Positions 8,431-49,641 of a stretch of DNA of 64,000 nucleotides are shown piece by piece. This DNA comes from Bdellovibrionales bacterium (GTDB lineage: Bacteria; Bdellovibrionota; Bdellovibrionia; Bdellovibrionales; UBA1609). Position numbers and translations under genes: made by a program. A model generated the notes under the pieces. That model worked only from the letters and a program-made list of their open reading frames with translations. It was not told the origin of the DNA and did no database searches. Within the stretch, counting starts at the first letter, position 1. Every line of letters starts with the position of its first letter. The stretch covers positions 32,001 to 96,000 of the forward strand of contig CBDHDF010000004.1 in assembly GCA_965261545.1 (NCBI GenBank), written 5' to 3'.

Positions 8431-9417
8431 CTACAAGGCCGTATGGAGGGGGTGAAATTGACTCAAAGCAGTGTATAGGGATTGAAGGTCAAGATGTGTG
8501 TAGCGTTGTGTGGTGTTTAAGGTTTCATGGCCTAGAACCTCTTGTATGACTCTAAGGTCTGCTCCTTCTTGGAGTAAATGAGTGGCAAAGCTGTGTCTGA
8601 GTGTATGGGGAGAAATGGGTTTTATGAGGCCACTTTTCTGTCCCCATCTTTTTACTACGGAATGAGCTGTGCGAGGACTAAGGGATTTCTTGCCAAAAAT
8701 ATATATATTATCCTTTTCTTTCAATTGATTCATATTATTTATAGATTCGAGGGCCATGGGAATAAGTACAACCATGCGCATTTTTCCTCCCTTACCGATG
8801 ATGTGCAAGCATCTTCTTTCGTGGTCAATATCTGACCACTTGGCTGTGCAAGCCTCACCAACTCGGAGTCCACATCCGTATAAGAGAGCAAAAAGCACCA
8901 TGTCTCGGCAAGACGACTTCTCACCCTTCTCCTTGTTTTCTTTTAGTAATGTCAAAATAGATAGGACTTCATCCACAGACAAGTGATGAGGAACCCTCCA
9001 TGGAACTTTTGGGGAGGGGATTCTTAGAGCTAAATTTCTATCTATATATTTCTCATGGAAAAGCCATTTCAAAAAGGCTCGAAGACAGGCAAATTTCCTA
9101 TTTTTTGTGGCGGGGGAAAGAGAGGACCAAAAGGAGAGCATTTGGTTCACTTCTATCAAAAGAGCGGCAGTATTTAATTTAGACTTTTCTTGTAATTTCT
9201 TTTTGGTAAGGGGATGGCGGTATATTTGCCCTCCTATCCGGGGTATTTGGGAGGTGTTTATTTCTTCTACAGTGGATTGGTTGACTTGCTGGAGGAACTG
9301 GTGGAGATCAGTGGCATAGGATTTGATAGTGTTTGGGCGGAATCCATATACAAATTCCTGTGTATTTAGGTATTTAGACGCTAGATAGAATAAGATTTGT
9401 TGCTCTTTAGGTGACAA
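8431..9417 (-). CDS. XerC/XerD-type tyrosine recombinase
   Basis: LLYGCGLRVGE, GKGGKMR, SPHTLRHSFATHLL, LGH...TTQRYTH (R-K-H-R-H-Y catalytic set). Confidence 0.92.
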   Translation of the reverse strand: MSPKEQQILFYLASKYLNTQEFVYGFRPNTIKSYATDLHQFLQQVNQSTVEEINTSQIPRIGGQIYRHPLTKKKLQEKSKLNTAALLIEVNQMLSFWSSLSPATKNRKFACLRAFLKWLFHEKYIDRNLALRIPSPKVPWRVPHHLSVDEVLSILTLLKENKEKGEKSSCRDMVLFALLYGCGLRVGEACTAKWSDIDHERRCLHIIGKGGKMRMVVLIPMALESINNMNQLKEKDNIYIFGKKSLSPRTAHSVVKRWGQKSGLIKPISPHTLRHSFATHLLQEGADLRVIQEVLGHETLNTTQRYTHLDLQSLYTALSQFHPLHTAL

Positions 9418-17781: not shown

Positions 17782-18997
17782 TGTCTTATCTCCTGCCAGA
17801 CTTTTTGCTGGGTCTAATGAGGTGATATTTAGTCCATCTTTGGTCTATTTTTGCGAGTAAGGGTCACTTGGAGCTTGGTGAGTTCGCAATTTTTTCTTTG
17901 TTCTGTTCTTCTTTCAGTGGTCATATTACCCTCACGGCAGGCGAGAAGCTTCTCATAAGTAAAGTGAATCATAGAAATAAGCTACAGGCAAAGTTAATTC
18001 GCAGGGTCGAGTTGAATAGGAGGAAAATAGACTCTCTCGCAAAGTCTAGGAATTCAAGTTTGTACTATTTTGTGTCGACAATGACTCAGTGACATAAGTA
18101 AAGTCAAGTAGGTAGGCTTGAGTCCAGAAATTCCCGCCGAGCTTGAAAAAACATTGAAATTCCTCCAAATCTCAGTGTGAGAATTGCACTGCATCGAATA
18201 AGGTAAACCTCCCCGTCTTCGCCATTTAGAGGCGAATGTCCAGACTTTAGTTTAGGGCAAATACGTTAAACTCTTTGGGGCACTTTGAGAAAAATGGCTG
18301 CTCATGATGTGTCGAAAACATCTGAGGCAGCAATAGGCTTAATCCCATAAGCCATTATGGCGAGGAGTTCCTGCCAATTTTTAAAGTATAGGGTATGGAA
18401 ATACCCCCTCATATGATCCCATAGATAAGATGTTAGCTGACAATTAAAATGCCCCACCGTCGCCAATGAAAAGTGGCCACTTTTCAGAGGAGGACCTATG
18501 GTGATTTTTGGCATTGTCAACCGAGACGCATATAATCAATTGATATTACTCATAAAAAGGCTCCGAGCTGATAAGAACTCCTTTTGGGTTCTTGTCGACC
18601 TGGAAAGGGGCTCCGTGTTGGAGAGTCCTTCCATGACAGCCTATTCAGGTTCCATATTTCTCATTTGTAGACTGTTTCTGGATTTCAATGAGGTTAAATA
18701 TATAGTCAAGAAAAGCCTGTTTAGGCTGTGCCCATTTTCTAAAGTATTTAAATTCCACAAGATTCCAACATTTGCCTCAATTTTCATGGAATTTCTTTTT
18801 GAAGACAGGCTTCCCTTAAAGCCGTCGCCAATTAAAATGTCCCACTTTCAATATGGAGGTTGTCGCCAATGAAAAGTGACCAATCTTCAGGGAGTGTTCA
18901 AATACTAGACAATGAAGTCTCTTCTTCTGATATAGATACTAAGCTCACAGAGTCCCTCCCTTTTGCAACTCAAAAGGTTAGCAATGAGGAGGATCTT

Positions 18998-20464
18998 ATG
19001 ATTAGTCAATACACTTTCGGCCGCATTCGTGACCTGAGTCACAGTGGTAAAAATAAGACAGAAATATCTCGTGAATTAGGGATCAATCGTAAGACGGTGC
19101 GCAAGTACTGTAAGTCCAACACCCCACCGAAGTACAAGGCGAGGTCCAAAAGAACTCGCCCAGATCCCCTTAATGGATATATGGATCGGGTGAAGTACTT
19201 TTTGAAGTTGAACCCAAGTAACACCGCCCGTGAAATATATGAGCTATTAGTTGAGGAGGGTTATCGTGGGAGTGAGAGAACGGTTCAGAGAAGAGTTTGT
19301 GAGATTCTTGGTTCTCGCCCCAAGGAGCGTTTTTTCAGCCAAAGATATGATCCTGGAGAACAGGCTCAGTTTGATTTTAAGGAGAAGGTTGCTTTACCAT
19401 TTGCCGATGGTGTTCAGATCGTTCATCTCCATTTTGGAACATTGCCTTGTAGTGGCACCTGTTGGGTTCGTGCCTACCCCTTTCTTGTCTATGAGTGTTT
19501 CATCGATGGGGTGCATGCTTTTTTTGAAAAGATAGGTGGGATGAGTGCGAACATCCGTATTGATAATTTATCTCCCTGTGTGAAGAAAGTTCTTAAAGGA
19601 AATCAGCGAATTTACACCCAATCTTTTGATCGAGCCATCCAATACTATGGATTTAAGGTTCTTCCCTGCCGCGCAGGGAAGGGCTCTGACAAGGGAGATG
19701 TGGAGCGTGATATTCGAACCTTCAGTTCTCGGATAAAAAATATTGTTAGAAACAAAGGAATTGTTTTTAAAGACTGGGATCATTTGAATCAGTTTTTAGA
19801 GTCTTATATGGATCAGCATCAGAGTGACTCCACCAAATCTCGCTTTGAGGAGGAGGCCAAAGTTCTTAAGCCTTTGCCTCCACGAGATGAAGATATTCTC
19901 TGTAAGGTGAATATTTGTCAAAGTAATGGTTATGGGACTTTGAGAATAGGTAAAACCACATATTCCATACCTGATGAGGTGATCCAATCTCCCTGTAAAA
20001 CCGTACAGGGTCCCTATCATGTCACGATCTATCGTGCAGGAGGGAAGCAAGAAATTGTCGCTCGCCATCAAAGAAAACCTGATGGGGAGCATAGTCTTCT
20101 TCTTGAACATATCCTTCCTTCTTTAGTTCGTAAGCCGCAAGCCATGGTAAGATGGGCTCACCGATCCATTCTTTTTCCAACAAATGTGTTTGAAAATTTT
20201 TATCAATACCTCAAGCAACAAGATTCAAGCCGTGCCGAGCATGAATATTTAAGAGTTATCAACTTGATTCAGCATGTGAGTTGGCAGGACTTATCTACAG
20301 CCATGGAGCTTCAATTAGAAAGTCGTGAGATTTTCGACTTTAAATCCATAAAAGATTTGCTCTTAGGAAATCCCACCAAAATTAATTTGAATGACCAACA
20401 AAAACCACTTCAACCTAGATTGTCTCAATATGACAGTCTTGTTCCAAACATAGGAGGTTCTTAA
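18998..20464 (+). CDS. istA: IS21 transposase IstA
   Basis: N-terminal HTH (EISRELGINRKTVRKY), PGEQAQFDF, IDN, KGDVER; GAGGAGG RBS before ATG 18998. Confidence 0.93.
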   Translation: MISQYTFGRIRDLSHSGKNKTEISRELGINRKTVRKYCKSNTPPKYKARSKRTRPDPLNGYMDRVKYFLKLNPSNTAREIYELLVEEGYRGSERTVQRRVCEILGSRPKERFFSQRYDPGEQAQFDFKEKVALPFADGVQIVHLHFGTLPCSGTCWVRAYPFLVYECFIDGVHAFFEKIGGMSANIRIDNLSPCVKKVLKGNQRIYTQSFDRAIQYYGFKVLPCRAGKGSDKGDVERDIRTFSSRIKNIVRNKGIVFKDWDHLNQFLESYMDQHQSDSTKSRFEEEAKVLKPLPPRDEDILCKVNICQSNGYGTLRIGKTTYSIPDEVIQSPCKTVQGPYHVTIYRAGGKQEIVARHQRKPDGEHSLLLEHILPSLVRKPQAMVRWAHRSILFPTNVFENFYQYLKQQDSSRAEHEYLRVINLIQHVSWQDLSTAMELQLESREIFDFKSIKDLLLGNPTKINLNDQQKPLQPRLSQYDSLVPNIGGS

Positions 20465-21246
20465 TGAATCACGAAGAACTTATAGGTTCTCTTAAAAAAC
20501 TCCGACTTCCAGCGATGGCGGATGAATATGTTGCAACGGCTAGAGTTGCCGAAAAAACAAAAAAGACGTATGAACAGTATTTAGGTATACTCGTTCAAAA
20601 TGAGCTTGCTGACAAGCATTCCCAGAGAGTGAAAAGATTGCTTAAGGGGGCCAAGCTTCCTCAACTTAAATCACTCCAAACTTATAACTTCCAGAAAAGA
20701 ACGGGAGTGACAGCTCAGCAAATTAATTGGATGGCAGAGGGAGAGTGGGTCAGAAAAGCCTGTAATGTTGTGTTTTACGGAAGCTTTGGAATGGGGAAAA
20801 GTCATTTGGCCATGTCCCTAGTTCGTTCACTCTGTGAACAAGGCTATCGATGTTTATGGGTCACCACTCATGAACTTATTGAAACAATGCGTGAAAGCAA
20901 GAAAGAACTCTCATTGAATGCTCTTTTTAAGAAATTAGACCGTTTTGATCTTATTGCTTGTGATGAACTTGGCTATACAGCTTCCTGCACAGAGGGGGCA
21001 GATCTTTTCTTTCAATTCATATCTCAGCGATATGAAAGGAAAAGTCTCATGATCACTACAAACTTAACATACTCTGAATGGGATAAGGTGTTTCTTAACC
21101 CTATTACCACCGCTGCTGCTGTTGATCGAATCATTCACAACTGTGAAACCCTCAACATTGAAGGAAAAGAAAGTTGGAGAACCGAATCGGCAAAAGCCAA
21201 GTCTAAACAGAGCAAAGAGGAAAGTTCAACCAAAGAAGTTCATTAG
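20464..21246 (+). CDS. istB: IS21 AAA+ helper ATPase IstB
   Basis: GSFGMGKSHLA Walker A, CDELGY Walker B, ITTNL, AAVDRIIH; coupled to istA by a TAATG overlap. Confidence 0.95.
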   Translation: MNHEELIGSLKKLRLPAMADEYVATARVAEKTKKTYEQYLGILVQNELADKHSQRVKRLLKGAKLPQLKSLQTYNFQKRTGVTAQQINWMAEGEWVRKACNVVFYGSFGMGKSHLAMSLVRSLCEQGYRCLWVTTHELIETMRESKKELSLNALFKKLDRFDLIACDELGYTASCTEGADLFFQFISQRYERKSLMITTNLTYSEWDKVFLNPITTAAAVDRIIHNCETLNIEGKESWRTESAKAKSKQSKEESSTKEVH

Positions 21247-23828
21247 AGATCCCCACTTTTGGGGAAGGAACTCGCCAGTTATCCACAAAATTTATCCACA
21301 GCAGCACTGCGTTGCTAGACATCGGGGTCACAGCCGCAGTGTCGCCATGGATAAATTTATGGATAACTGGCTTTTACCGTACTATTTGCTCGTCACTCTC
21401 GCGGAGCTTTAGACATTAGCTGCGCCAAGGAATCCTGAAAAATACTCCATTTACCTCTGCCATAGGGCTGAAGGATGCATTTGGGGTCATGCCAAAAGTG
21501 GTGGGCAGAAAATCATTCCTCAGAATCTTGTGGCATAGTCCGAGTTAAATGATGAGCAAAATAAAGACACTTGACTAAACTCTGAACGAAGAATAACTAA
21601 ATCAGTACATCATCAACTGGCCGTTTTTCATTGGCGACGGCTTCTAAAAATGGCCAATTTTAATTGGCGCCTAACATAAGATAGTCTCCTCTCTTTTTCT
21701 ACCGCCTTTTGAAACAATTTACAGGCCAAATGTTGAAGTTGGTCCACTAAAAATACCAGCATCATAATCACGGCTAAATTGTTACACAAATTTTGCTTGC
21801 CGTGGCCAAAATTGTGCTCAAAGTTGTAACCCAAATTCTTTAACGTATTAAATGTTTCATTTTCTATCTTCCAGCGTGCTCTTCCCCCCCTCATTATTTG
21901 CATTATGTTGTCTTCGTTGATCTCAATGTCAGTCACCCAGCTAAAGTGCTGAACCTTACCGTTTGCTTTCGTTTCTTTGTATTCAATAAAATTCACTCGA
22001 CAATCAGGATTTGAATCATTGAGTGAAACATCATTTATGAATCGAAATTCATGTGTCACTCCATTCTCTACCACGGTGAAGTGAGAAACTGTTCCTAAGC
22101 TATCTGCTCCATTTACAAACTCAAATAAAACTTTGTGGTCCCCCATCTTACAGCCTAAAATATAACTTAATTTTAATTCGTTAAGAAGAGTGATGTGAGG
22201 AGCATTGGAAGCCAATCCATCCTCAATAACAATCACTGGAAGGTGAGGGTGTTCCCTGCGAAAATCTTCAAGGAGTCGTTTGGCTGCATTACGCTCACAA
22301 TCATTTTTGCTCGATCCATCTGTGTTTGAAATGGGCTCTGGAGCAATAGGTATAACCTGTTTCTTATCGGGGTGAACAATCACTCCTGCTAACATTTGAT
22401 GATAGTAGGTCTTCGTCTCATCACGATGATTCTTTATACAACAATTCTCACAATGAATAGTCGAGGAGCTAAAGGCACCTGTTCCATCAATGCTGAGAAG
22501 ATATTTTCCACCCAAATATGGGTAACCCTCCAAAACCTTCCCTCTTTGAGCTACGGTAAACAAAGATTTAAAAAAATTTTGAAACTCACGGGTTGGAACA
22601 GGATCTAAAATCTCTCGCATAGCCGTATCACTAGGAATTTGGCCTATTTGAAACAAATGGTGTAGGTTGTTTTTTGCCACTGGGTCATGGACACGATCAC
22701 AAAACTGAAGCATGGATGGATCTTTCAAGGCAAACATTGCCACAGATGACATAATGGCATCGCTCAGAGGAATCCTATGGGGACGCTGCGATCTTATATC
22801 TGGAACTGCAAGAGATTTACTGTGTAGCAGGGAATACATTCCTGAAGCGGATAGACCTTTTCTAAAATGTTGATGCGACATGACGAACCCTCCTTGGTCT
22901 GATGTGCAACAACAAATATTCAAACAGATACTTAGGCAAAAGTCTACGAACTCTTTTTGAGGCGAATCTTTTGGAAGCCACTACTGTGGCCTAAACTATT
23001 TTTCGACGGGAATTGCTGGCTTGAGTCAATGAGACTAAGGTTGATTCAGATAGTGGGTGAGTTTATGGCTTCAAGTCAATGGCTAAAGAGGGCAAGAGTT
23101 AAGTAAAGTGCCGCCAAAGCAAAAAATGAAAGGAGATCAAAAAATGAAAGGAATGAAACCCATGAGGTCCATGAGACCTTTATTGCTTTTGTGGTTATTG
23201 TCACTGTTGATGGTTCTGCCTTCATGTGCCTTTTTGAGCAAAGAGAGTCGAATGAACAAAGAGGGCAAAGTGAGCCGAGAGAGTCAAGACAAAGGTCTGA
23301 ATCAGAATCAGAATCATACAAATCCATCAGGGGACTCTGCACCTCTATCTACATTACATCATCTACACCAGAAGACCGTACCGCTTCCTACAAGGCTGTG
23401 GTTCGTTCGTAAGCATGAAGAAAAGATGAGGCGAATCACCCTAAAATCAGGAGGCCGACTCCAGTTACCCCATGGATCTGGCTTCCAAGGTCATTATAGT
23501 TCCCATGGCGGCCATGGTTCCCACAGTGGACCTCGTGGATCTCGTTCTCATGGTACGAAAAGAGGTGATAATGATAAGGGTGACAAAAGAAGGCCCTCTT
23601 CTGTGAATCTTGTAGGCCCCGATGGTGATGTGATTTTATTTTATAAAGAAAAAAGCCAACAAGGTGAAGATAAGATTGTGATCCAAGAGTGTGAAGTGGG
23701 TTCTGTTATAGATGAGGTGAGTGATTGCCAGCGGCCCCATGGTGCACTTATAAGAATAATCCCTGTGAGTGACTTTAAGCGTCGCCTTCAATCCGTGCTA
23801 AGAGTTGATGAGCTTCCTACCCTAGGCC

Positions 23829-25239
23829 CAATGCCGTTTCCTTAAGAAAAATCTCTTGAAATCATTAGATAAATCGACAAGAATAAGACTTGTTTTATTT
23901 TACACCCAACCCTCAACCAAGGAGTAAGTCACATGCAATCCAATATTGATCTCGAAAGCCCCCAAATGACGAGTTCGCGTCACAGATGACCATTTTATTC
24001 TACCAAAACTTGATTCTTCCTTCAAGCCAGAGCACCTTGTCGATCCAGAAAAACAAAAAAGGAATCGAAAATTTAATCCTCAAATTTTCTTTTTTACCAT
24101 TATCTATCTTATTTCAGGAACAAATTACGAAGGCTACCAAATCGCTCTTAAGACGGTATGGACTCATTTTGGTGACCTGCTTCTCATGCCAGTCAAAAGC
24201 AGTCTCAGCAAGATACGTCAAAGTATTTCTTACCTATTTTTCAAAGATATCTTTGAATCTCTGATTACAGACTACGAACCATTGAGAAAAACGTTTCATG
24301 GTTTTTATATCTATGCCATAGATGGCGACCAATTAGCACTTCCTCGCTCTAAAGATCTTTTAAAGGAGGGTTATTGTGGGTACCCTTGCCCAAATGAGAT
24401 GGAAACTCATTTCTTACGTATGTATCTATCTCATGCTTATGACGTTTTATCGGGTGTGACAAAGAATCTTTGCTATTCTCCCGCTCTCAACGAAATCGCC
24501 AATGCTATTCAAATGATAGGTAGTTTTGAGAGTAATAGCATAACTCTCTACGATAGGCTTTATTTATCTACAGAGATTATTAAGGCCCATGCTCAAGCCA
24601 GTAACTTCTTTATTGCGCGTTGTAAGCGAGGCTCTACTTTTATCCCCATCGTAAATTTATTTAATGGCCCAGGTTGGTATTCACAAATGGTTATTGAGGG
24701 GGTGGTCATTCATCTCTATAAGTATAAAAACCCAAAGACTGGGGAGTTCTCTGTTTTGGCCACTAATCTTCCGCATGGCTCCTTGGACAAGAAGGATATG
24801 GTTGCTCTTTACTCTCGTCGTTGGGAAATAGAAACGACATTTCGTGATTTTACATCGACAATGAAAATGGAGCAGTGGCACTCAACAAGCCTTAATGGAA
24901 TATTGCAAGAGCTGTATTCTTATTTTTGGCTCTTCAATTATACAAAGATTCAAATGAGCATAAATGAGGATGAAGACAGTGTGAATCAGTTGGTGAAAAA
25001 TGACTACAAAAAACCTAACTTTAAACTGATTCTTGATTTCATAATGGATAGCATCCCTCTTTTTGTTGCGGGGCTCTATCAGAAATTTAGGAAGCAGATA
25101 AAGTTGCTGATGAAGATTTCAATGGAGAAGAGGAGGCACTTCAAAAGAAGCTATGAAAGGTCTATCAAAAGGGCTGGGAGTTCTTTTAAAAGAAATAGCT
25201 TAACGCAGAGGGGTGTGGTGGCTTAAGGAAACGGCATTG
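23829..25239 (+). mobile_element. IS4-family insertion sequence (1411 bp) inside the DGR target gene
   Basis: Perfect 18-bp IRs caatgccgtttccttaag / cttaaggaaacggcattg; 10-bp TSD accctaggcc at 23819-23828 and 25240-25249. Confidence 0.95.
23933..25226 (+). pseudogene. IS4-family DDE transposase with an apparent frameshift near the 5' end
   Basis: YAIDGD, LYDRLY, YSRRWEIETTFR. The ATG at 23933 (AAGGAG RBS) is in a different frame from the long frame open from 23970 to 25226. Confidence 0.8.
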
Positions 25240-26256
25240 ACCCTAGGCCCCAAAGAGGCTCGGCAGGTCAAAGCCTATAAAGAGGGCGGGGAAGCTCCCC
25301 GTTTCCATGACCTCGTTCGACAAAGAGATGAGGCCCAGGAAAAGGTCTCAGGCATAGAAAAGTTCATAGACGCCTATGGAGAAGAAAATGCAGGATCTCT
25401 TATAAAAAAATTAGCTGCCTTAAGAAAAAACCTTGAAGAACTTGACTCAAAAATTGACAGCAGGCAGGAGTTCGCTTCTGCCGTGAGTGCTCTGAACGGA
25501 GTCATTGAGAGCTTAGTGGATGAAGTGATAGGAAGCCCTCGGATGAACACTCGTCTTTATTCAAAAGACAAAACAGGTATTGAATACAGTGTTTTGAGAG
25601 CCTATGTGAGACCAACATTGTCTCATGGTTTTGTCCCCGTGTCTGCAGGTTCTTTCATCATGGGGAGTCCTAATACTGAAAAAGGTCGAGATTCGGATGA
25701 GACCCCTCATGAAGTAACAATTTCTAAGCCCTTTGAAATAGGCACCACAGAGGTGACTCAATGGCAGTGGTTTGTTGTGATGGGGACAAATCCTTCAAAA
25801 TTCCAAGAAAAAGAGTATTGCCCAGAAAGTTATATGGAACAAGATGGAGTTTCAATGTGTGCCGATCATCCTGTGGAGAGAGTGTCTTGGGAGGACGTCC
25901 AAGAATTTATAAGGGAGTACAATCGTAGGGCAAAAGAGACCCACGGCAACGAATATGAATACCGTTTGCCTACGGAAGCGGAGTGGGAATTTGCAGCCAG
26001 GGGTGGTGCAAAAGCAGGCACAAAAACAGCCTATTCCTTTGGTGACAATCCTTCAGAACTTAAAAACTATGGTTGGCATCAGGGGAACTCTCGATCTCGA
26101 TTTGGCAAACAAAGCCGACAATCAAGGTCCGTGGGATTGCTGAGCCCCAATCCCCTAGGGCTTTATGATGTTCATGGAAATGTGTGGGAATGGGTCGAAG
26201 ACTGGTATAAGAGGAAATATCCTGAAGGTCCTGTCACAGACCCTAGAGGTCCGAAA

Positions 26257-26381
26257 AATGGCTCTTACCGTATTGTACGTGGTGGCGGTTGGAACGGCTA
26301 CGCTCGCTCCCTGCGCTCTTCCAATCGTGGCTACGATCGGCCTGGTAATCGCTGGAACGTTATCGGTTTCCGCCTTGTGAG
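26257..26381 (+). repeat. DGR variable repeat (VR) at the 3' end of the target gene
   Basis: Ungapped 125-bp match to 28446-28570 with 14 mismatches, all opposite TR adenines. Confidence 0.97.
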
Positions 26382-26427
26382 GACGCCTATGTAACCCCTT
26401 TGCCCTTTTACACTTTTACCCTTTTCC

Positions 26428-26540
26428 AGGCGAAGCGAAGCGAGCCTCAGCGTGCCAGCCGTCAGGCTGGGCACAAGGCAAGAAGGAAGGAGAGGGAAAG
26501 GCTGAGCCCGCGGAGCGTGGCGAAAGCCAACCCTCTCTCC
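26428..26540 (+). promoter_or_regulatory. GC-rich hairpin cluster downstream of VR (candidate retrohoming cis-element)
   Basis: ccagcc-gtca-ggctgg (26455-26470, extendable with gtgc/gcac), tggc-gaaa-gcca (26518-26529), overlapping GCGAAGC units. Confidence 0.65.
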
Positions 26541-26569
26541 GTATTTAGTTTTATTTTAGTGAGAGGTGT

Positions 26570-27079
26570 ATGTTAATCAAAGTCATATCCTTGTCTTTTA
26601 ATTCGGCTCTTGGTGGTTTTGATGATGATGAAGTGAGAGAGTTTTTAAAAGATAAGGAGCTTGTTTCTTCTCGTGATTATCTATTTGTGAAGAATGAAAC
26701 ACCATATTTAGTTTTTGTACTTAAGTATTGCCCGGTTGCTCAGGATGTAGTTAAAAGTAGGTCCATCCAAAAAGAAAGAAGCTGGAAGAAGTCTTTATCT
26801 GAACACGAGATGGGATTGTTTAATTTATTAAGAGATTGGAGATCGCAGCGTTGTAAGAAAGATGGTATTCCTCCTTATGTAGTTTTAACAAACCAGCAGA
26901 TTGCTGACATAGTAAAAAGGCGACCTCAAACGCTATCAGATTTAGTTAAAATTGATGGTATAGGAAAAAATAGAGTAGACAAATATGGAAAAGATATCTT
27001 ATCCATTTCAAAGGTTATAGTTCGTGATGTTTTAAAGGACGATTCAAGTGAGTTATCAGAGCAAGAATGTTCTTCATAA
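26570..27079 (+). CDS. HRDC-domain protein (DGR-associated accessory gene)
   Basis: LFNLLRDWRSQRCKKDGIPPYVVLTNQQIADIVKRRPQTLSDLVKIDGIGKNRVDKYGKDIL is a typical HRDC pattern. Confidence 0.9.
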   Translation: MLIKVISLSFNSALGGFDDDEVREFLKDKELVSSRDYLFVKNETPYLVFVLKYCPVAQDVVKSRSIQKERSWKKSLSEHEMGLFNLLRDWRSQRCKKDGIPPYVVLTNQQIADIVKRRPQTLSDLVKIDGIGKNRVDKYGKDILSISKVIVRDVLKDDSSELSEQECSS

Positions 27080-27425
27080 AAATAAAGAAGATTTAATTAT
27101 TTTTATAAAGTGGGTAGACTTTGTGAAGTGGTTATTTGTAGCGATTGATAAATTTCCTAAGAAAACTAGATTTACTTTTGTAGATCATCTTACAAATCTA
27201 TCATTACTTATTGTAGAAGATATGGTTGAAGCTCGTTATAATAAGAATAAAATATTCATTCTTAAAAGAATGAATATAAATCTTGAAAAATTGAGAATTT
27301 TATTGCGGATTTGTTTTGAACTCAAGATGATGTCACAAAAGTCCTATGAATACTCTTCTAGATCAATAAATGAGGTAGGAAAAATGATTGGTGGATGGAT
27401 GAAGCAGCAGGAGTCTCTTCTATGA
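27048..27425 (+). CDS. avd: DGR accessory variability determinant (Avd-like four-helix bundle)
   Basis: 125 aa basic protein with KFPKKTRFTF, LEKLRILLRIC, INEVGKMIGGW; its stop overlaps the RT start (ATGA). Confidence 0.9.
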   Translation: MSYQSKNVLHKNKEDLIIFIKWVDFVKWLFVAIDKFPKKTRFTFVDHLTNLSLLIVEDMVEARYNKNKIFILKRMNINLEKLRILLRICFELKMMSQKSYEYSSRSINEVGKMIGGWMKQQESLL

Positions 27426-28435
27426 AGAGAATTGGAAATATTTTTGAGGAATTAACAACCTTTGATAACCTTTTGTTAGCATCAAAAAAAGCTATGAGAA
27501 GGAAAAGAAATAAAAAACCAATATCAGAATTTTACTTTAATCTTGAGAATGAAATATTTGAAATACAAAATGAATTGATCCAAAAAACCTATCGTCCAGG
27601 CCCATATATACAATTTGAAATTAGAGAACATAAGCGAAGATTAATTTGTAGTTCGAATTTTAGAGATAGGGTGGTTCACCATTCTATTTGTAATTATTGC
27701 GATCCTGTGTTTGAAAAAAGATTTATATTTGATAGTTACGCTTGTCGCCCTGGTAAAGGAGCTCATTCTGCAGTTAGGAGATGTCAGAAATTTTCTAGAA
27801 AATTTAGGTATTTTCTGAAGTGCGATATAAAGAAATTCTTTCATAGTATAAATCATGACATTTTAAAAGAATTATTGAGAAAGAACTTTAAAGATGAAGA
27901 TTTTTTGAATCTATTGGATTTAATTATTGATAATAAGGTGCCTGGCAATTTGGATAGAATGGGTCTCCCCATAGGGATTCTCACAAGTCAGAATTTTGCT
28001 AATTTTTATTTAGATTATTTGGATCATTTTGTTAAAGAACATATCAGAATTCCGAGCTACCTACGTTATATGGATGATTTTATATCATTTTCAAATGATA
28101 AGTATGAACTAAATAAATATCATCAAAAAATAGAAGGATTTCTTGCAGAAACTCTGAATCTTAGCCTTAAAGAAAGAGTAACTAAGCTAGCTCCTGTGTC
28201 AGAGGGCATTCCCTTTCTTGGTTTTAATATTTATCCATCAATCGTTAGAATCAAGCGAGAAAATTTGGTGCGAATGAGAAATAAAATAAGGCGCAAAGAA
28301 GAAGAATATATTAAAGGGATCATTTCCGAGAGATCACTCGTTCAATCTGTTAATAGTGTGATTGGTCACGTTGCCCATGTTAATTCTAAGGAGGTGAGAA
28401 AAGATATTTTTACAAGTTCTTTAAAAATGGCGTGA
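27422..28435 (+). CDS. DGR reverse transcriptase (337 aa)
   Basis: MKRIGNIF start, [50 protein letters not shown] (DGR-type GxxxSQ), [15 protein letters not shown]; frame intact. Confidence 0.95.
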
Positions 28436-28445
28436 TGATCATTTT

Positions 28446-28570
28446 AATGGCTCTAACCGTATTATACGTGGTGGCAGTTGGAACAACAACGCTCGCAACC
28501 TGCGCTCTTCCAATCGTAACAACGATCGGCCTGATAATCGCTGGAACAATATCGGTTTCCGCCTTGTGAG
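28446..28570 (+). ncRNA. DGR template repeat (TR)
   Basis: Intergenic, AAC/AAT-rich copy of VR starting 10 nt after the RT stop; 12 AAY codons in the VR reading frame. Confidence 0.96.
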
Positions 28571-28697
28571 TACATAGCTGTGTATAAAGTAAGAGTGAAT
28601 TGCCAGGAAATGTCGTTTATGGACTGCATTTGTGTGCCTAGGCTATGTCCAGATCATCATCCTGCGCTGATATTGTGTATCAGACAAATAAATCTAT

Positions 28698-28745
28698 AGT
28701 CATTGCGCTGAGTAGGTTATTCTTGAAAATCGCAATGACTTTTTT
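28698..28745 (+). terminator. Inverted repeat plus T-tract, likely 3' end of the DGR transcript
   Basis: Perfect 10-bp IR agtcattgcg (28698-28707) / cgcaatgact (28731-28740) followed by ttttt; the 23-nt loop is long for a classical terminator. Confidence 0.55.
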
Positions 28746-28817
28746 GCACGACATGCTTTTCTATGAGACAAATGGGGTGTGAGCCGTTGCACTGTTTTTA
28801 GGAAACTTCAATTAGAT

Positions 28818-30017
28818 ATGAGACATTTTGGACAAATTGGGATGGTTTTATTGATGGCTTTGCTGGCTGGAGGTATCATGCTGTGGAAACACCATGAGTT
28901 CAAAAGCAATACATCTTCACAAAGTAAAGATCAAGAAGTCGTGAAAGAAGGTGCCACAGCTTCAAAGACGACTCATCAAGAGAAAGTTCATGGAGCTGTG
29001 ACCATTGATATTCACATGTTAGAGGCTCGTCATGATGGAAAGAGGTGGGAGCTTTGGGCAGATCGTAGTGAACGATATAAGGGTGGCAAGGATTTTTATT
29101 TAGAGGGAATTCGAGTGAACTTCCCCTCGGATCAAACCTTTGCTTTTAAAGTGAAAGGAAATAAAGGGGTTATTAATTTGGGCACCATGGATATGAATAT
29201 TTATGGCAATGTTGTCGTTCGGTCGACAAATGGAGACACTTTTAAAACTCAAACTCTCTTTTATTCTTCAAAACTACGTCATTTGAAGGGTGAAACACCT
29301 GTTGAAATGCGATTCCAATACAGTCCAGAAAGAGGCTCTAAAGGACCCCTTCTTCTTGACAAGGATGTAAGTTTGGTGGGCTCAAAGATTTTGATTGATT
29401 TAGATCCATCGCAGACAGAAATCTACGGGAGCGTGGTCTTGAAGGGAACCCTTAAAAAAGAAGGAATATTTACCATAAGAAGTGAGAAAGTCATTTTTGA
29501 TAACAAATCGGCAGTGACCCAATTTTTAGGTGATGTGCAAATTCATGTAGGAACTATTAAAGTGTTAGCCCCCCAGGCTCAATTTCAATATAAGAAGGAG
29601 ACAGGCGCTATTGTAAACTTTGTTGTCAAAGGTGGAGTTAATATGGAGGGTGAGGTATCGGTAAAGAGTCAAAATTTGTCTCAGGGGTCAGAGTTAATGA
29701 AGAAGAATTCAACGAAGAAGAGTCCAACGCAAAGCTGGAGAGCTAGGACCAAAGAAGTTTTCATTGACTTGGAGAACGAAGTGTTTGTTTTAAAGGGAAG
29801 CCCCCGGGTTGTCCAAGGTGAAGGTGAGTTAAGGGGGGAGGAAATTATATTTCGTCGTGGGGGTGACGCTATTCAAATACGCAAAGTGCGAGCTAAAATT
29901 GACAAGGATTTTGGCAAAGACCTTGGCAAAGCCTTCGATAAAAGCCTTGGGAAGGGGGTTGGTAAGGAGCTTGGTGAGGACTCTGGTAAAGAGCCTAAAG
30001 AAACATCTGCACCATAA
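28818..30017 (+). CDS. LptC/LptA-like beta-jellyroll LPS-transport protein
   Basis: Single N-terminal transmembrane anchor, KRWELWAD, GNVVVRS, FKTQTLFY, VLKGSPRVVQGEGELRGEEI (OstA-like). Confidence 0.65.
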   Translation: MRHFGQIGMVLLMALLAGGIMLWKHHEFKSNTSSQSKDQEVVKEGATASKTTHQEKVHGAVTIDIHMLEARHDGKRWELWADRSERYKGGKDFYLEGIRVNFPSDQTFAFKVKGNKGVINLGTMDMNIYGNVVVRSTNGDTFKTQTLFYSSKLRHLKGETPVEMRFQYSPERGSKGPLLLDKDVSLVGSKILIDLDPSQTEIYGSVVLKGTLKKEGIFTIRSEKVIFDNKSAVTQFLGDVQIHVGTIKVLAPQAQFQYKKETGAIVNFVVKGGVNMEGEVSVKSQNLSQGSELMKKNSTKKSPTQSWRARTKEVFIDLENEVFVLKGSPRVVQGEGELRGEEIIFRRGGDAIQIRKVRAKIDKDFGKDLGKAFDKSLGKGVGKELGEDSGKEPKETSAP

Positions 30018-43722: not shown

Positions 43723-44890
43723 CCCGAGTTTGACAGCAGCATCTGCGTCAAACGAATGATATTAAAGGATTAACGCATATAGTTGTATTTTGTTTATCCA
43801 CACTTGTGGGCATTAAGGATTCTGGGAGGGATGGGGACGCCTGCGGCTTTAAATAAGGAGTTGGCATTGCCAGTGATATCTGTGCGGGTCCAAATGACTT
43901 GATCACGAATTTTAACAGGGATAGCCCTAACTTCCTTGAGTTCCCTCATGGCCTCTACAACAGTTAAAGGTCGCTCTTTAACATGACCAATGCCTATGGC
44001 TGGGCTTTTTAGTTCATCTTCTTATCTCTTAAACATTTTGTAAGGTGGGCCTCACAAAGATAAGTTAAAAAGCATAGAGTTAAATGTCCAATAATCCTCT
44101 GGTCTGTCCAATGGAAAACAGGACGTGTTTTCAAAGTCCCTTTTAACTCACCAAAAGCATCTTCAATTTTCCACAATTCTTTGTAGTTGATAATAATCTC
44201 ATCTGCCGTCAAGTCTTTGACATTTGTAAGGACGGCAAAAAAACCATCAATTTTTTCATCTAATTCTATTTGTTCTGCATTTAATTCAGGTTTTTTATTT
44301 TTGTCGTCAGCCATCTTTACATATGTTAGCTGACAATTAAAATGCCCCACCGTCGCCAATGAAAAGTGGCCACTTTTCAGAGGAGGACCTATGGTGATTT
44401 TTGGCATTGTCAACCGAGACGCATATAATCAATTGATATTACTCATAAAAAGGCTCCGAGCTGATAAGAACTCCTTTTGGGTTCTTGTCGACCTGGAAAG
44501 GGGCTCCGTGTTGGAGAGTCCTTCCATGACAGCCTATTCAGGTTCCATATTTGTCATTTGTAGACTGTTTCTGGATTTCAATGAGGTTAAATATATAGTC
44601 AAGAAAAGCCTGTTTAGGCTGTGCCCATTTTCTAAAGTATTTAAATTCCACAAGATTCCAACATTTGCCTCAATTTTCATGGAATTTCTTTTTGAAGACA
44701 GGCTTCCCTTAAAGCCGTCGCCAATTAAAATGTCCCACTTTCAATATGGAGGTTGTCGCCAATGAAAAGTGACCAATCTTCAGGGAGTGTTCAAATACTA
44801 GACAATGAAGTCTCTTCTTCTGATATAGATACTAAGCTCACAGAGTCCCTCCCTTTTGCAACTCAAAAGGTTAGCAATGAGGAGGATCTT

Positions 44891-46357
44891 ATGATTAGTC
44901 AATACACTTTCGGCCGCATTCGTGACCTGAGTCACAGTGGTAAAAATAAGACAGAAATATCTCGTGAATTAGGGATCAATCGTAAGACGGTGCGCAAGTA
45001 CTGTGAGTCCAACACCCCACCGAAGTACAAGGCGAGGTCCAAAAGAACTCGCCCAGATCCCCTTAATGGATATATGGATCGGGTGAAGTACTTTTTGAAG
45101 TTGAACCCAAGTAACACCGCCCGTGAAATATATGAGCTATTAGTTGAGGAGGGTTATCGTGGGAGTGAGAGAACGGTTCAGAGAAGAGTTTGTGAGATTC
45201 TTGGTTCTCGCCCCAAGGAGCGTTTTTTCAGCCAAAGATATGATCCTGGAGAACAGGCTCAGTTTGATTTTAAGGAGAAGGTTGCTTTACCATTTGCCGA
45301 TGGTGTTCAGATCGTTCATCTCCATTTTGGAACATTGCCTTGTAGTGGCACCTGTTGGGTTCGTGCCTACCCCTTTCTTGTCTATGAGTGTTTCATCGAT
45401 GGGGTGCATGCTTTTTTTGAAAAGATAGGTGGGATGAGTGCGAACATCCGTATTGATAATTTATCTCCCTGTGTGAAGAAAGTTCTTAAAGGAAATCAGC
45501 GAATTTACACCCAATCTTTTGATCGAGCCATCCAATACTATGGATTTAAGGTTCTTCCCTGCCGCGCAGGGAAGGGCTCTGACAAGGGAGATGTGGAGCG
45601 TGATATTCGAACCTTCAGTTCTCGGATAAAAAATATTGTTAGAAACAAAGGAATTGTTTTTAAAGACTGGGATCATTTGAATCAGTTTTTAGAGTCTTAT
45701 ATGGATCAGCATCAGAGTGACTCCACCAAATCTCGCTTTGAGGAGGAGGCCAAAGTTCTTAAGCCTTTGCCTCCACGAGATGAAGATATTCTCTGTAAGG
45801 TGAATATTTGTCAAAGTAATGGTTATGGGACTTTGAGAATAGGTAAAACCACATATTCCATACCTGATGAGGTGATCCAATCTCCCTGTAAAACCGTACA
45901 GGGTCCCTATCATGTCACGATCTATCGTGCAGGAGGGAAGCAAGAAATTGTCGCTCGCCATCAAAGAAAACCTGATGGGGAGCATAGTCTTCTTCTTGAA
46001 CATATCCTTCCCTCTTTAGTTCGTAAGCCGCAAGCCATGGTAAGATGGGCTCACCGATCCATTCTTTTTCCAACAAATGTGTTTGAAAATTTTTATCAAT
46101 ACCTCAAGCAACAAGATTCAAGCCGTGCCGAGCATGAATATTTAAGAGTTATCAACTTGATTCAGCATGTGAGTTGGCAGGACTTATCTACAGCCATGGA
46201 GCTTCAATTAGAAAGTCGTGAGATTTTCGACTTTAAATCCATAAAAGATTTGCTCTTAGGCAATCCCACCAAAATTAATTTGAATGACCAACAAAAACCA
46301 CTTCAACCTAGATTGTCTCAATATGACAGTCTTGTTCCAAACATAGGAGGTTCTTAA
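44891..46357 (+). CDS. istA: IS21 transposase IstA (copy 2)
   Basis: Same translation as copy 1 except YCKS->YCES. Confidence 0.93.
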   Translation: MISQYTFGRIRDLSHSGKNKTEISRELGINRKTVRKYCESNTPPKYKARSKRTRPDPLNGYMDRVKYFLKLNPSNTAREIYELLVEEGYRGSERTVQRRVCEILGSRPKERFFSQRYDPGEQAQFDFKEKVALPFADGVQIVHLHFGTLPCSGTCWVRAYPFLVYECFIDGVHAFFEKIGGMSANIRIDNLSPCVKKVLKGNQRIYTQSFDRAIQYYGFKVLPCRAGKGSDKGDVERDIRTFSSRIKNIVRNKGIVFKDWDHLNQFLESYMDQHQSDSTKSRFEEEAKVLKPLPPRDEDILCKVNICQSNGYGTLRIGKTTYSIPDEVIQSPCKTVQGPYHVTIYRAGGKQEIVARHQRKPDGEHSLLLEHILPSLVRKPQAMVRWAHRSILFPTNVFENFYQYLKQQDSSRAEHEYLRVINLIQHVSWQDLSTAMELQLESREIFDFKSIKDLLLGNPTKINLNDQQKPLQPRLSQYDSLVPNIGGS

Positions 46358-47139
46358 TGAATCACGAAGAACTTATAGGTTCTCTTAAAAAACTCCGACT
46401 TCCAGCGATGGCGGATGAATATGTTGCAACGGCTAGAGTTGCCGAAAAAACAAAAAAGACGTATGAACAGTATTTAGGTATACTCGTTCAAAATGAGCTT
46501 GCTGACAAGCATTCCCAGAGAGTGAAAAGATTGCTTAAGGGGGCCAAGCTTCCTCAACTTAAATCACTCCAAACTTATAACTTCCAGAAAAGAACGGGAG
46601 TGACAGCTCAGCAAATTAATTGGATGGCAGAGGGAGAGTGGGTCAGAAAAGCCTGTAATGTTGTGTTTTACGGAAGCTTTGGAATGGGGAAAAGTCATTT
46701 GGCCATGTCCCTAGTTCGTTCACTCTGTGAACAAGGCTATCGATGTTTATGGGTCACCACTCATGAACTTATTGAAACAATGCGTGAAAGCAAGAAAGAA
46801 CTCTCATTGAATGCTCTTTTTAAGAAATTAGACCGTTTTGATCTTATTGCTTGTGATGAACTTGGCTATACAGCTTCCTGCACAGAGGGGGCAGATCTTT
46901 TCTTTCAATTCATATCTCAGCGATATGAAAGGAAAAGTCTCATGATCACTACAAACTTAACATACTCTGAATGGGATAAGGTGTTTCTTAACCCTATTAC
47001 CACCGCTGCTGCTGTTGATCGAATCATTCACAACTGTGAAACCCTCAACATTGAAGGAAAAGAAAGTTGGAGAACCGAATCGGCAAAAGCCAAGTCTAAA
47101 CAGAGCAAAGAGGAAAGTTCAACCAAAGAAGTTCATTAG
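46357..47139 (+). CDS. istB: IS21 helper ATPase IstB (copy 2)
   Basis: Identical translation to 20464-21246. Confidence 0.95.
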   Translation: MNHEELIGSLKKLRLPAMADEYVATARVAEKTKKTYEQYLGILVQNELADKHSQRVKRLLKGAKLPQLKSLQTYNFQKRTGVTAQQINWMAEGEWVRKACNVVFYGSFGMGKSHLAMSLVRSLCEQGYRCLWVTTHELIETMRESKKELSLNALFKKLDRFDLIACDELGYTASCTEGADLFFQFISQRYERKSLMITTNLTYSEWDKVFLNPITTAAAVDRIIHNCETLNIEGKESWRTESAKAKSKQSKEESSTKEVH

Positions 47140-47750: not shown

Positions 47751-49641
47751 CCCTAAAAGTTGTAACTAGGTTTAATGTATTGCGTTAACTTTCCTCTCTT
47801 CCTATGGAATTGGCTGCTGTCAACGGTTTGAGAGGTTTAATAGTATTAATATATTTAATATGATTCATAAGAATTTGCTGCGAAAGGTCCTCTTCGTCTC
47901 CATTGGATAGATGAGGCATAGTGGTAGCCACAGCCACCGTCACATTTGAAACAGATAAAAAACATCATTTTGTCTTGGGAAGCCCATCTATTTGGAAGGC
48001 TGAAAAAATATCCTTTTGTTTTTTAGACAGCTCTCCAAGCATCAGATCACCTGTAGCTAATTCATAAAATTTTAATCGGTCCATCATTTTGTAAATTTCT
48101 ATTTTAGACATTTTTTTATATAACTTCTTATCTTTCATAACAGTATCAATATGTGAAATTAAAATTAAAGAGAGAAAATTAATAAAGATGCTTCCCCTCA
48201 TATTCATGAGAGAATGAACTCGACTTCTCCTTCCATTAATATCATGCTTGAATGAGAAAAATACTTTCTCAATGATATCTTTGTTTCGATATAAACTCAA
48301 TATATCTGTTTTCTTTAAATCATGACTATTTGTAATTAATATCATAATACCCAGCGTAGAAGATTCTTCATTAATATTTTCTTCATTTAAAGAAATCTTA
48401 AATGGAGTGCAATCAGAGATATTGAGAAACCTTTTTTTATTTCCTAAAGTTTCTTTCATATAGGAACTAGCTTGTTCTTCTGATTTCAAATCTTTCTCAA
48501 GAAAGAGTTTCATAAAATCAAGCAACTCTTTCATTAACACAGATTCCTCATAAACCCTTCTTTCTTTGTCTAAGAAAATATGAGCCGTACAATCAAATCC
48601 TCCGATTTTTATTGATTCTTTGCAATGCGAATAAATTTCCTCATTAAAAGTAAAAGAGCATGATGGAGATTTTATTTTCTCATTTAAAGCCACAGCAAGC
48701 TCTCTTGAGAGTTTTGTTCTAAAACTCATGGGTATCAAATACTTCAATTCCTTACGATGCAGTCCCTTAATATTTTCTACACTAGAAAAACCCTTATCCA
48801 TAACTAAACAATCTAAATCTAATTTATAACTTGTTATGATCTCAATAATATTCGATAAAGTTTTGACATCCGGTATACTTCCAGGATAGATTCTGTACGC
48901 TATAGGCGTATGAGTTTTATTGTCTTCAGATTTCCTACTTATCAGACCTAAGTTTATCTGTTCGAGATTCTCTCCATCTCTGTTGTAACCTTTCTCTAAA
49001 AATTCATTATTCATAGAGTAGGAAGAAAAGGATGTGATGTCAAACATTACCGTACCAGAACCCTTCACTTGACTTATCCATTCGCTAAAGAAAGATTCTA
49101 TCTTTTTTTGATCTCTCCCAAGATCACATAAGAGATTGCTTATTTTTTGTGACGACATAAAATTTTTCTTTGAAACATAAGCTTCTTGACACCACATATC
49201 GTAAAGATAAAAGGGCTCTCTTTTGATTATTTTAAAAAAAGCTAAATGCAAATAATGTTCGTAATTATCTGGATAAATTTTAGACAATGTTTTTAGAAGA
49301 TTTAGTTGTTCGCATATTTTCTCTAAGAAAAATAAGGCTCCCACATTATAGGAGCCTATGGGAATCTTTTTTCTTTTGGTCTTAATTTGACCTGTAAACT
49401 CATCCTTTCTTCCAAGGTAGATGCGTTTTTGCCTGGCCTGCTTTTTTTCCTTGTCCCAAAAGCTTTCAACTTTATAGACATAGGTTTTTCCCTTATTTTT
49501 TTGCTCAAAAGTGTATGACATCGTTAATATTGTAACTATGCTTTTGAAGAGATGACAATCTCTTAATCAAAGTGAAGGCCTTCTCAGACAATAATCAGGA
49601 CTTAAGCCCTACACCTAGTTACAACTTTTAGGGATTTCAGG
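47751..49641 (-). mobile_element. Second, distinct IS1634-like element nested in the first
   Basis: 20-bp IR ccctaaaagttgtaactagg (47751-47770) / cctagttacaacttttaggg (49614-49633); TSD aagct(c) at 47746 and 49642. Confidence 0.88.
47965..49521 (-). CDS. IS1634-like DDE transposase, intact (518 aa)
   Basis: KTYVYKVESFWDKEKKQARQKRIYLGR, FDITSFSSYS, GYNRDGENLEQINLGL, PGSIPDV, MDKGF, YRNKDIIEKVF. Confidence 0.88.
   Translation of the reverse strand: MSYTFEQKNKGKTYVYKVESFWDKEKKQARQKRIYLGRKDEFTGQIKTKRKKIPIGSYNVGALFFLEKICEQLNLLKTLSKIYPDNYEHYLHLAFFKIIKREPFYLYDMWCQEAYVSKKNFMSSQKISNLLCDLGRDQKKIESFFSEWISQVKGSGTVMFDITSFSSYSMNNEFLEKGYNRDGENLEQINLGLISRKSEDNKTHTPIAYRIYPGSIPDVKTLSNIIEIITSYKLDLDCLVMDKGFSSVENIKGLHRKELKYLIPMSFRTKLSRELAVALNEKIKSPSCSFTFNEEIYSHCKESIKIGGFDCTAHIFLDKERRVYEESVLMKELLDFMKLFLEKDLKSEEQASSYMKETLGNKKRFLNISDCTPFKISLNEENINEESSTLGIMILITNSHDLKKTDILSLYRNKDIIEKVFFSFKHDINGRRSRVHSLMNMRGSIFINFLSLILISHIDTVMKDKKLYKKMSKIEIYKMMDRLKFYELATGDLMLGELSKKQKDIFSAFQIDGLPKTK

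Follow-up and report, generated by a model that had tools for sequence, protein, structure and literature searches.

A probable chromosomal HRDC-type diversity-generating retroelement, partly decayed, serving six variable repeats in a Bdellovibrionales bacterium

Introduction

The closest known system to the locus described here, a diversity-generating retroelement (DGR) in a 64-kb stretch of a Bdellovibrionales genome, is the HRDC-type DGR of Treponema denticola. By "the window" we mean that whole stretch of 64,000 nucleotides (contig CBDHDF010000004.1, positions 32,001 to 96,000), and positions are those of the window unless a contig or locus is named. The locus is very probably a chromosomal HRDC-type DGR (Architecture C), partly decayed, in which one intact core serves six variable repeats (VRs) of lectin-tipped, lipoprotein-like paralogs. 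Its gene order is target(VR)-HRDC-Avd-reverse transcriptase (RT)-template repeat (TR). HRDC genes were found in 14 of 372 DGRs, about half of which also carry avd, and these 14 show 11 architectural variants; remote targets (>100 kb) were confined to non-phage lineages, the most non-adjacent targets being the seven of Treponema (Wu et al., 2018; PMC5758913).

In T. denticola the targets carry a lipoprotein signal and are of the FGE type, and there are orphan targets as well (Nimkulrat et al., 2016; PMC4891356). As far as these sources describe it, that DGR resembles ours in being chromosomal without phage association, in having an HRDC accessory gene that overlaps its neighbor, in diversifying lipoprotein-signal targets with a C-terminal VR of FGE/C-type-lectin fold (its TvpA is the top PDB match of our target) and in serving several targets, some more than 100 kb from the RT, together with orphan and remnant targets. 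It differs in that our locus has both HRDC and Avd in the order HRDC-Avd-RT-TR, whereas the T. denticola accessory gene lies between TR and RT (PMC4891356). Here, in addition, the targets form one recent family of six paralogs (~93% identical), an insertion sequence (IS) splits the cognate target, there is a second, decayed cassette and the host lineage is different.

The DGR of Bordetella phage BPP-1 (mtd-avd-TR-brt) is the second system to compare. Handa et al. (bioRxiv 10.1101/2023.10.23.563531) describe in it a template:primer duplex, an Avd-binding stem-loop and a 'cPRT Stop', and predict such features in 207 of 278 Avd-containing DGRs. To the extent covered there, the two elements share adenine-specific TR-to-VR mutagenesis, Avd, the catalytic and template-contact residues of the RT and a 3'-end difference between TR and VR that is never passed on. 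They also share the order of RNA parts 3' of the TR, namely a primer strand, a 3-nt gap, a strand pairing upstream of the TR, a stem-loop and adenosines. Unlike BPP-1, our element lies on a bacterial chromosome, has an extra HRDC gene and places the TR after the RT, so that the 3' end of the RT, where BPP-1 uses avd, supplies the upstream duplex strand; it has six FGE-type targets where BPP-1 has the single target Mtd. The GC-rich initiation of mutagenic homing (IMH) site and adjacent hairpin of BPP-1 are not demonstrated here.

The DGR of Legionella pneumophila is likewise chromosomal, and its single target, reportedly displayed on the cell surface, is the variable lipoprotein LdtA, which has a tip of C-type-lectin fold. 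Its accessory gene sets it apart from ours, being MSL where we find HRDC; in the portion of the survey drawn on here, MSL DGRs carry avd and never HRDC (Wu et al., 2018; PMC5758913). Compared with these systems, our element is a new member of the known HRDC-type kind; from the T. denticola DGR it is set apart by the order of its genes, the presence of both accessory genes and a target family of six paralogs.

Results

Template and variable repeats

The TR and the VR of the adjacent target, paralog A, are as follows:
28446 to 28573, forward strand: TR, 128 nt with 33 adenines
26257 to 26384, forward strand: VR of paralog A, the last ~43 target codons, with 14 differences from the TR at adenine sites and a T>G marker at 26382

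When 28420-28600 was aligned with 26231-26411, TR positions 28446-28570 matched VR positions 26257-26381 over 125 nt without a gap, starting exactly at 28446 and 26257. There are 14 mismatches in this pair, and the TR has an adenine at every one of them (8 A>G, 5 A>T and 1 A>C). The 125 nt of TR contain 32 adenines and 12 in-frame AAY codons, and the changed sites are 14 of the 32 adenines and 0 of the 93 other positions (Fisher p = 3.8e-10). An earlier, sequence-only reading of the window had reported the gapless 125-bp pair with its 14 adenine-only mismatches, which alignment reproduced, and the 32 adenines and 12 AAY codons, which we recounted with the same result. The same reading had named non-adenine mismatches as evidence that would speak against a DGR. 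There are none in the 125 nt; the homology extends 3 nt further, to 28573 and 26384, and these added positions contain a single non-adenine difference, T28571 versus G26382.

This position, TR position 126, is a pyrimidine in the TR and G in the VR in all six VRs of the genome and in three related DGRs (genomes G046, G054 and G029, where the TR has T or C and the VR has G). Taking the six VRs together, 29 of the 33 TR adenines are altered in at least one.

Core genes and the nature of the reverse transcriptase

Between the target and the TR are three genes:
26570 to 27079, forward strand: HRDC-domain accessory gene (PF00570 8e-21), with a counterpart 65% identical in the G046 cassette
27048 to 27425, forward strand: Avd accessory gene (NF033474 DivGenRetAVD 108.3 bits, cut-off 80; PF22296 2.2e-22)
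27395 to 28435, forward strand: DGR RT with PIGILTSQ and YMDD motifs (RVT_1 5e-21)

All three frames are open and, as mechanical open reading frames (ORFs), overlap by 32 nt (HRDC/Avd) and 31 nt (Avd/RT); with the family models matched, this agrees with the earlier description of RT, Avd and HRDC as intact and overlapping. A search of Avd against PDB sequences gave zero matches. The top PDB match of the RT is 8ub7_A (7.8e-48), with a group II intron RT at 6.8e-24. Although entry 8ub7_A is titled just 'Reverse transcriptase', we take it as the Bordetella phage bRT because its numbering puts ten residues where Handa et al. name them. When aligned to it, the window RT keeps all ten (K29, F66, R74, I76, D138, I181, G182, Q187, D215 and D216). 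The proposed identity as a DGR with adenine-specific TR-to-VR change thus gains from the RT being closest to bRT and from an Avd above the NF033474 cut-off.

Another explanation of the repeats is ordinary gene conversion or recombination among lectin-tip repeats, with the RT then belonging to an unrelated element, for example a retron or group II intron. The genome indeed holds many group II intron-type RTs, and the target paralogs clearly recombine or duplicate. Such exchange is contradicted by differences restricted to TR adenines in six independent VRs, and the RT itself scores 148.7 against the group II model TIGR04416 (cut-off 300) and 64 against the retron St85 model (cut-off 235), and reaches none of the NCBIfam cut-offs of other RT families, falling far short of those of the group II, retron, Drt and Abi models. 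An Rfam scan of 26200-28900 returned zero matches at E<=1, to intron and retron RNAs as to all others, and Avd exceeds the cut-off of a DGR-specific model. This explanation can be considered effectively refuted, its remaining chance being minimal. Judged by PDB, NCBIfam and motifs, the RT is of the DGR type and is neither a group II intron nor a retron RT.

The adjacent target is split by an insertion sequence

Upstream of the core genes the target of the cassette is present in two pieces:
23108 to 23828, forward strand: N-terminal fragment of paralog A with a lipoprotein-like signal (...LLMVLPSC); 23144 is the other possible start, and the called ORF enters the IS, with its stop at 23845
23829 to 25239, forward strand: IS4-like element, 1411 bp, with a DDE_Tnp_1 transposase ORF (24186-25226) and perfect 18-nt terminal inverted repeats
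23819 to 23828 and 25240 to 25249: 10-bp target-site duplication ACCCTAGGCC bordering the IS
25240 to 26394, forward strand: C-terminal fragment of paralog A with a coiled-coil-like region and an FGE-sulfatase/C-type-lectin-fold domain (PF03781 1.8e-51)

The insertion yields a 245-aa N-terminal piece with the lipoprotein-like signal and a 393-aa C-terminal ORF with the FGE domain and the VR, which as a mechanical ORF (25213-26394) begins at a GTG within the IS end. The half of paralog A that bears the VR is without the signal peptide. The transposase ORF lies between the arms of a 26-nt inverted repeat (23821-23846 and 25222-25247), and the IS is present in the genome in at least 42 full-length copies of 99-100% identity. 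In-silico excision of the IS together with one copy of the duplication fuses ORFs 23108-23845 and 25213-26394 into a single frame of 621 aa. The N- and C-terminal halves are contiguous in the five other paralogs, which independently confirms the split. Two earlier claims must therefore be given up: the cassette is not 'complete', since its adjacent target is cut by a 1411-bp IS with a 10-bp duplication, and the target that was read as running uninterrupted from 23144 consists of two fragments with the IS between them at 23829-25239.

The top PDB match of the target is TvpA, the variable protein of the T. denticola DGR (2y3c, 1.5e-26). Its N-terminal 335 residues match no Pfam family and have 15 relatives in a large protein collection, all unnamed and all with an FGE domain; an ESM Atlas query with this N-terminal part gave nothing usable. 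Both the position of the VR and the C-type-lectin/FGE fold fit a DGR target, and from its lipoprotein-like signal the full-length protein may be displayed at the cell surface. The adjacent copy being split, the intact copy is available only in trans (paralog F, 633 aa).

Six target paralogs and a relic

Apart from itself, the TR matches seven sites in the genome, six of them at the 3' ends of genes. These are paralogs A to F, which show 92-95% identity to the window target over the full length:
Paralog A, window: split by the IS
Paralog B, C4:6151-6278: two 1-nt frameshifts, ORFs of 268 and 307 aa
Paralog C, C2:788049: 618 aa, VR with an in-frame 3-nt deletion and a 3-nt insertion, conserved Trp lost
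Paralog D, C7:51004: 613 aa, a +1/-1 pair garbles ~8 VR codons
Paralog E, C7:142349: 2-nt deletion in the VR, truncated protein
Paralog F, C11:148583: 633 aa, fully intact

The five VRs outside the cassette lie on four contigs, three of the five more than 100 kb from any contig end. Each has 13-21 of the 33 adenine sites altered and, outside the indel segments, no non-adenine substitution but the common T>G at TR position 126. The 600 nt upstream of the VRs differ by 2-7% between paralogs. Given this divergence around the VRs and the adenine-only changes within them, each VR was rewritten by this TR after the paralogs diverged; in other words, these comparisons show that one TR rewrote all six VRs after the family duplicated.

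The seventh site is a relic VR (C10:751855-751967; L032:5856-5968), 75% identical to the TR, with 15 adenine and 9 non-adenine differences. It is intergenic, beside succinyl-CoA ligase-like genes, and ~40 C-terminal codons of the target are left.

Three of the five frame-breaking indels of the target family fall within VRs, which make up ~7% of the gene. The counts are small, and they hint that homing itself may break targets. We considered assembly indel noise as the source of the frameshifts and rejected it: in an alignment of 10 of the at least 42 IS copies, six columns with substitutions and one clean indel of 6 nt are the only differences. Two target-family members in other assemblies, P0002 (frameshifted) and P0003 (with VR insertions), were considered as orthologs for a strain-to-strain comparison of VRs and were rejected, being further paralog-like members.

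Orphan paralogs E and F (L030:6628-6662 and L031:5395-5429) keep the spacer that follows the VR and a 35-nt piece of HRDC, with ~150-160 nt between them deleted. From this remnant it follows that the orphan targets arose by copying of the target plus the start of the cassette. Four of the six target paralogs have, divergently upstream, a gene for a putative recombination-promoting nuclease (Rpn/YhgA-like), which may have moved with the target duplications or promoted them; its TIGR01784 score of 44 bits falls short of the cut-off (52). The copies are at L028:3183-4148 (reverse strand), L027:8174-8674, L030:3878-4408 and L031:7657-8632, and the gene is intact solely beside paralog C.

A second cassette and the question of dormancy

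A second DGR cassette (G000:C4:1-8081; L027) lies inverted on the same contig, ~51 kb from the first and 24 kb upstream of the window start. It contains the frameshifted target B, an intact Avd and an HRDC gene into which IS21-type and IS4-type elements, nested and together ~4.2 kb long, have inserted. At the DNA level its RT shares 99.6% identity with the first and departs from it by five substitutions and a 1-nt deletion that immediately precedes the LTSQ motif; the contig starts within this RT. A second TR was sought in the assembly and none was found. The Avd-RT part is 99.6% identical between the two cassettes and the target part just 93%, and from the sequences this unequal identity suggests recent recombination or gene conversion.

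These lesions raise the question of whether homing still takes place. One possible explanation, to which we give rather less than even credence, is that this is a genuine but dormant DGR, with an open core, homing stopped, frozen VRs and targets decaying in an IS-swamped genome. Such dormancy would account for the single fully intact target among six, for the VR indels in C, D and E that were never overwritten, for the dead second cassette and for family members elsewhere that are frameshifted (P0002) or have VR insertions (P0003); the load of at least 42 copies of one IS and the nested IS21/IS4 insertions point the same way. Several observations fit it poorly. The RT, Avd, HRDC, TR and all RNA helices (see below) of the first cassette are free of lesions, whereas the copy in the second gained five substitutions and a frameshift. 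Outside the indel segments the non-adenine positions in all six VRs still match the TR, and the VR indels could be products of the latest homing event. The element may still be active at present.

A conserved RNA around the TR

A DGR RNA of ~320 nt (28429-28746) spans the TR. The ~190 nt 3' of the TR show conservation far above that expected for non-coding DNA between cassettes whose RTs are 50-62% identical. RNAalifold was run on four sequences and gave a first model in which 15 of 43 pairs are compensated; with a covariance model of these four, the full-length element was found in 11 further loci, always just after the RT and TR. The RNA element is thus present in all 15 related loci with enough flank, two further loci with related RTs ending at contig edges and hence standing outside the 15. 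A search with the covariance model did not find the element at loci of more distant RTs (<=42% identity).

Helices 1-2 of the first model, which paired the TR 3' end with 28657-28669, show no two-sided changes and were replaced by a duplex to the region upstream of the TR, with which the strand 28652-28662 pairs better than it does with the TR end. This long-range duplex (28429-28440 with 28652-28662; 11-13 bp) covaries and forms in 15 of 15 loci, with energies of -17.0 kcal/mol for cognate, -12.0 for non-cognate and -7.2 for shuffled strands. The revised model was scored on a plain MAFFT alignment that was not fitted to it: 92.7% of cells pair, against 32-49% with partners slid, both partners vary in 27 of 47 pairs, and the observed values were reached by 0 of 500 shuffles on four of five measures and by 1 of 500 on the fifth. 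Its parts are:
28429 to 28440, forward strand: 5' strand of the long-range duplex, GGCGTGATGATC, spanning the stop codon of the RT gene; corresponds by layout to the avd:Sp duplex ('cPRT Stop') of BPP-1
28572 to 28648, forward strand: helix ACATAG (28572-28577) with CTATGT (28643-28648) at the TR 3' end; candidate template:primer duplex
28602 to 28637, forward strand: 10-bp stem-loop inside the ACATAG:CTATGT helix; candidate Avd-binding stem-loop
28649 to 28652, forward strand: invariant CCAG directly after the CTATGT strand
28652 to 28662, forward strand: 3' strand of the long-range duplex, GATCATCATCC
28667 to 28694, forward strand: stem-loop (28667-28683; 5-6 of 7 pairs covary), then a conserved A-rich run, ACAAATAAA
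28698 to 28746, forward strand: long hairpin with conserved internal GAGTAG...GAAA (11 of 11 pairs covary), then a T-run

The order of the element is thus the TR-end helix, the enclosed stem-loop, CCAG, the duplex strand, a stem-loop, the A-rich run and the long hairpin with its T-run, which is probably the 3' end and terminator of the DGR RNA.

By analogy with BPP-1, these parts suggest how the element would work. The operon transcript would end in the TR and its flanking RNA, and the long-range duplex, the TR-end helix and the three stem-loops would seat this RNA on RT-Avd for cis-primed cDNA synthesis. We infer that synthesis should begin at or just 5' of T28571, with the priming nucleotide predicted within CCAG (28649-28652) or beside it, and it would be because of this start that the T/G marker is never copied into a VR. 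Adenines would then be copied with errors, and the cDNA would replace a VR, in cis or in trans; the HRDC protein presumably has an accessory role in the process.

Genomic context and distribution

Upstream of the DGR the window contains dnaN, recF, gyrB and gyrA, genes for a TonB receptor and a tyrosine recombinase and two further IS elements; LptC/LptA, NAD kinase, RecN, the nuo genes and Lon follow on the downstream side. No phage structural genes were found in the 64-kb window, and with these core chromosomal neighbors the description of the element as a chromosomal DGR without adjacent phage genes stands. A scan of viral contigs with the window RT as query gave no close relative.

RT matches at E<=1e-30 were found in 8 of 60 relatives, and matches at E<=1e-60 in 20 of 389 other genomes of the class, the best with 73% identity. 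G046 has the order target-HRDC-Avd-RT-TR as here, with 19 of 20 TR/VR differences at adenines. The same cassette order is seen in G054 (19 of 25 differences at adenines; HRDC conserved) and in G029, which is IS-damaged (21 of 24). A pattern scan of genome contigs gave a sole locus, in a bacterium of the candidate phyla radiation, with 39% identity.

The earlier reading had also held that such a context was not characterised. In its favor, we found no literature linking DGRs to this host lineage or phylum, and 'Bdello' and 'Oligoflex' are absent from the Roux et al. supplements to the extent that their long files were covered. Against it, RTs of this lineage occur in the 20 of 389 class genomes mentioned above, and the partly consulted survey describes chromosomal HRDC-type DGRs with remote targets (PMC5758913).

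Several other mobile elements were observed. IS21-type pairs (a 534-aa ORF and a 260-aa IstB ATPase) are present in the window in two copies (18860-21246 and 44753-47139), together with a 431-aa transposase-like ORF without a Pfam match (21628-22923, reverse strand) and two more DDE transposase ORFs (47965-50601, reverse strand). With these window elements and at least 42 copies of the target IS, the genome carries a heavy load of IS elements. About 19 further RT matches are spread over several contigs of the genome, with 25-31% identity and open frames of 144-495 aa (most 348-495), including several identical copies; from their sequences they look like group II intron RTs. The tyrosine recombinase (8431-9417, reverse strand; 328 aa; Phage_integrase 1e-40) is encoded 14 kb from the DGR, with gyrA/TPR on one side and a sigma-54 activator on the other; it may be XerC/D-like or have been left behind by an integrated element.

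Discussion

Our analysis agrees with the sequence-only reading on the identity of the element as a DGR and adds what that account omitted: five paralog VRs, a relic VR, a decayed duplicate cassette and a structured RNA. All parts of a DGR are present, the adenine-only pattern is seen in six VRs and the RNA covaries.

Several points weigh against the picture of one intact core that serves six VRs. Five of the six targets are damaged or altered, A by the IS, B by frameshifts and C, D and E by VR indels, and where an indel has lasted in a VR, no later homing has taken place at that VR. The start codons and the lipoprotein signal of the targets are predictions from sequence. As for the RNA, its elements are matched to those of BPP-1 by layout, that is, by analogy, and the candidate template:primer helix is mostly invariant, with two of its six pairs changed on both sides. 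A target-side hairpin was sought near the VR and none was convincing, the candidate at 26452-26474 being no more stable than shuffles (z = 0.98). With regard to activity, the locus occurs in four runs from one sample of one study, with low-depth contigs, and paralogs that are ~93% identical cross-map (the 26541>26705 joint corresponds to the orphan-paralog arrangement); a metagenome scan for the junction of VR end and flank gave 0 matches. Even with these points, a chromosomal HRDC-type DGR in partial decay is the reading that we strongly favor.

What the finding adds is, first of all, a well-resolved HRDC+Avd DGR with remote targets to the few that are known. Its near-identical paralogs let the genome itself show one TR rewriting all six VRs after duplication. 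The intact, IS-split, frameshifted and relic targets, together with an apparently live and a dead cassette, form a natural series that is useful for the study of DGR decay and of the cost of homing. For a DGR in which the RT precedes the TR, the conserved RNA in turn yields testable predictions about the stop duplex and the site of priming.

A broader and quite speculative proposal, which we consider improbable as a whole, would join these observations. According to it, a lineage-specific DGR in a relative of predatory bacteria would vary six surface lectin-tipped lipoproteins that recognize prey or partners, sloppy homing would make the VR indels, and the ~320-nt RNA would be a new family absent from Rfam. 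If this were true, DGR mutagenesis would have a measurable cost in pseudogenisation, buffered by several paralogs, and the cis-priming and 'stop' architecture of BPP-1 would extend to HRDC+Avd elements with the TR after the RT.

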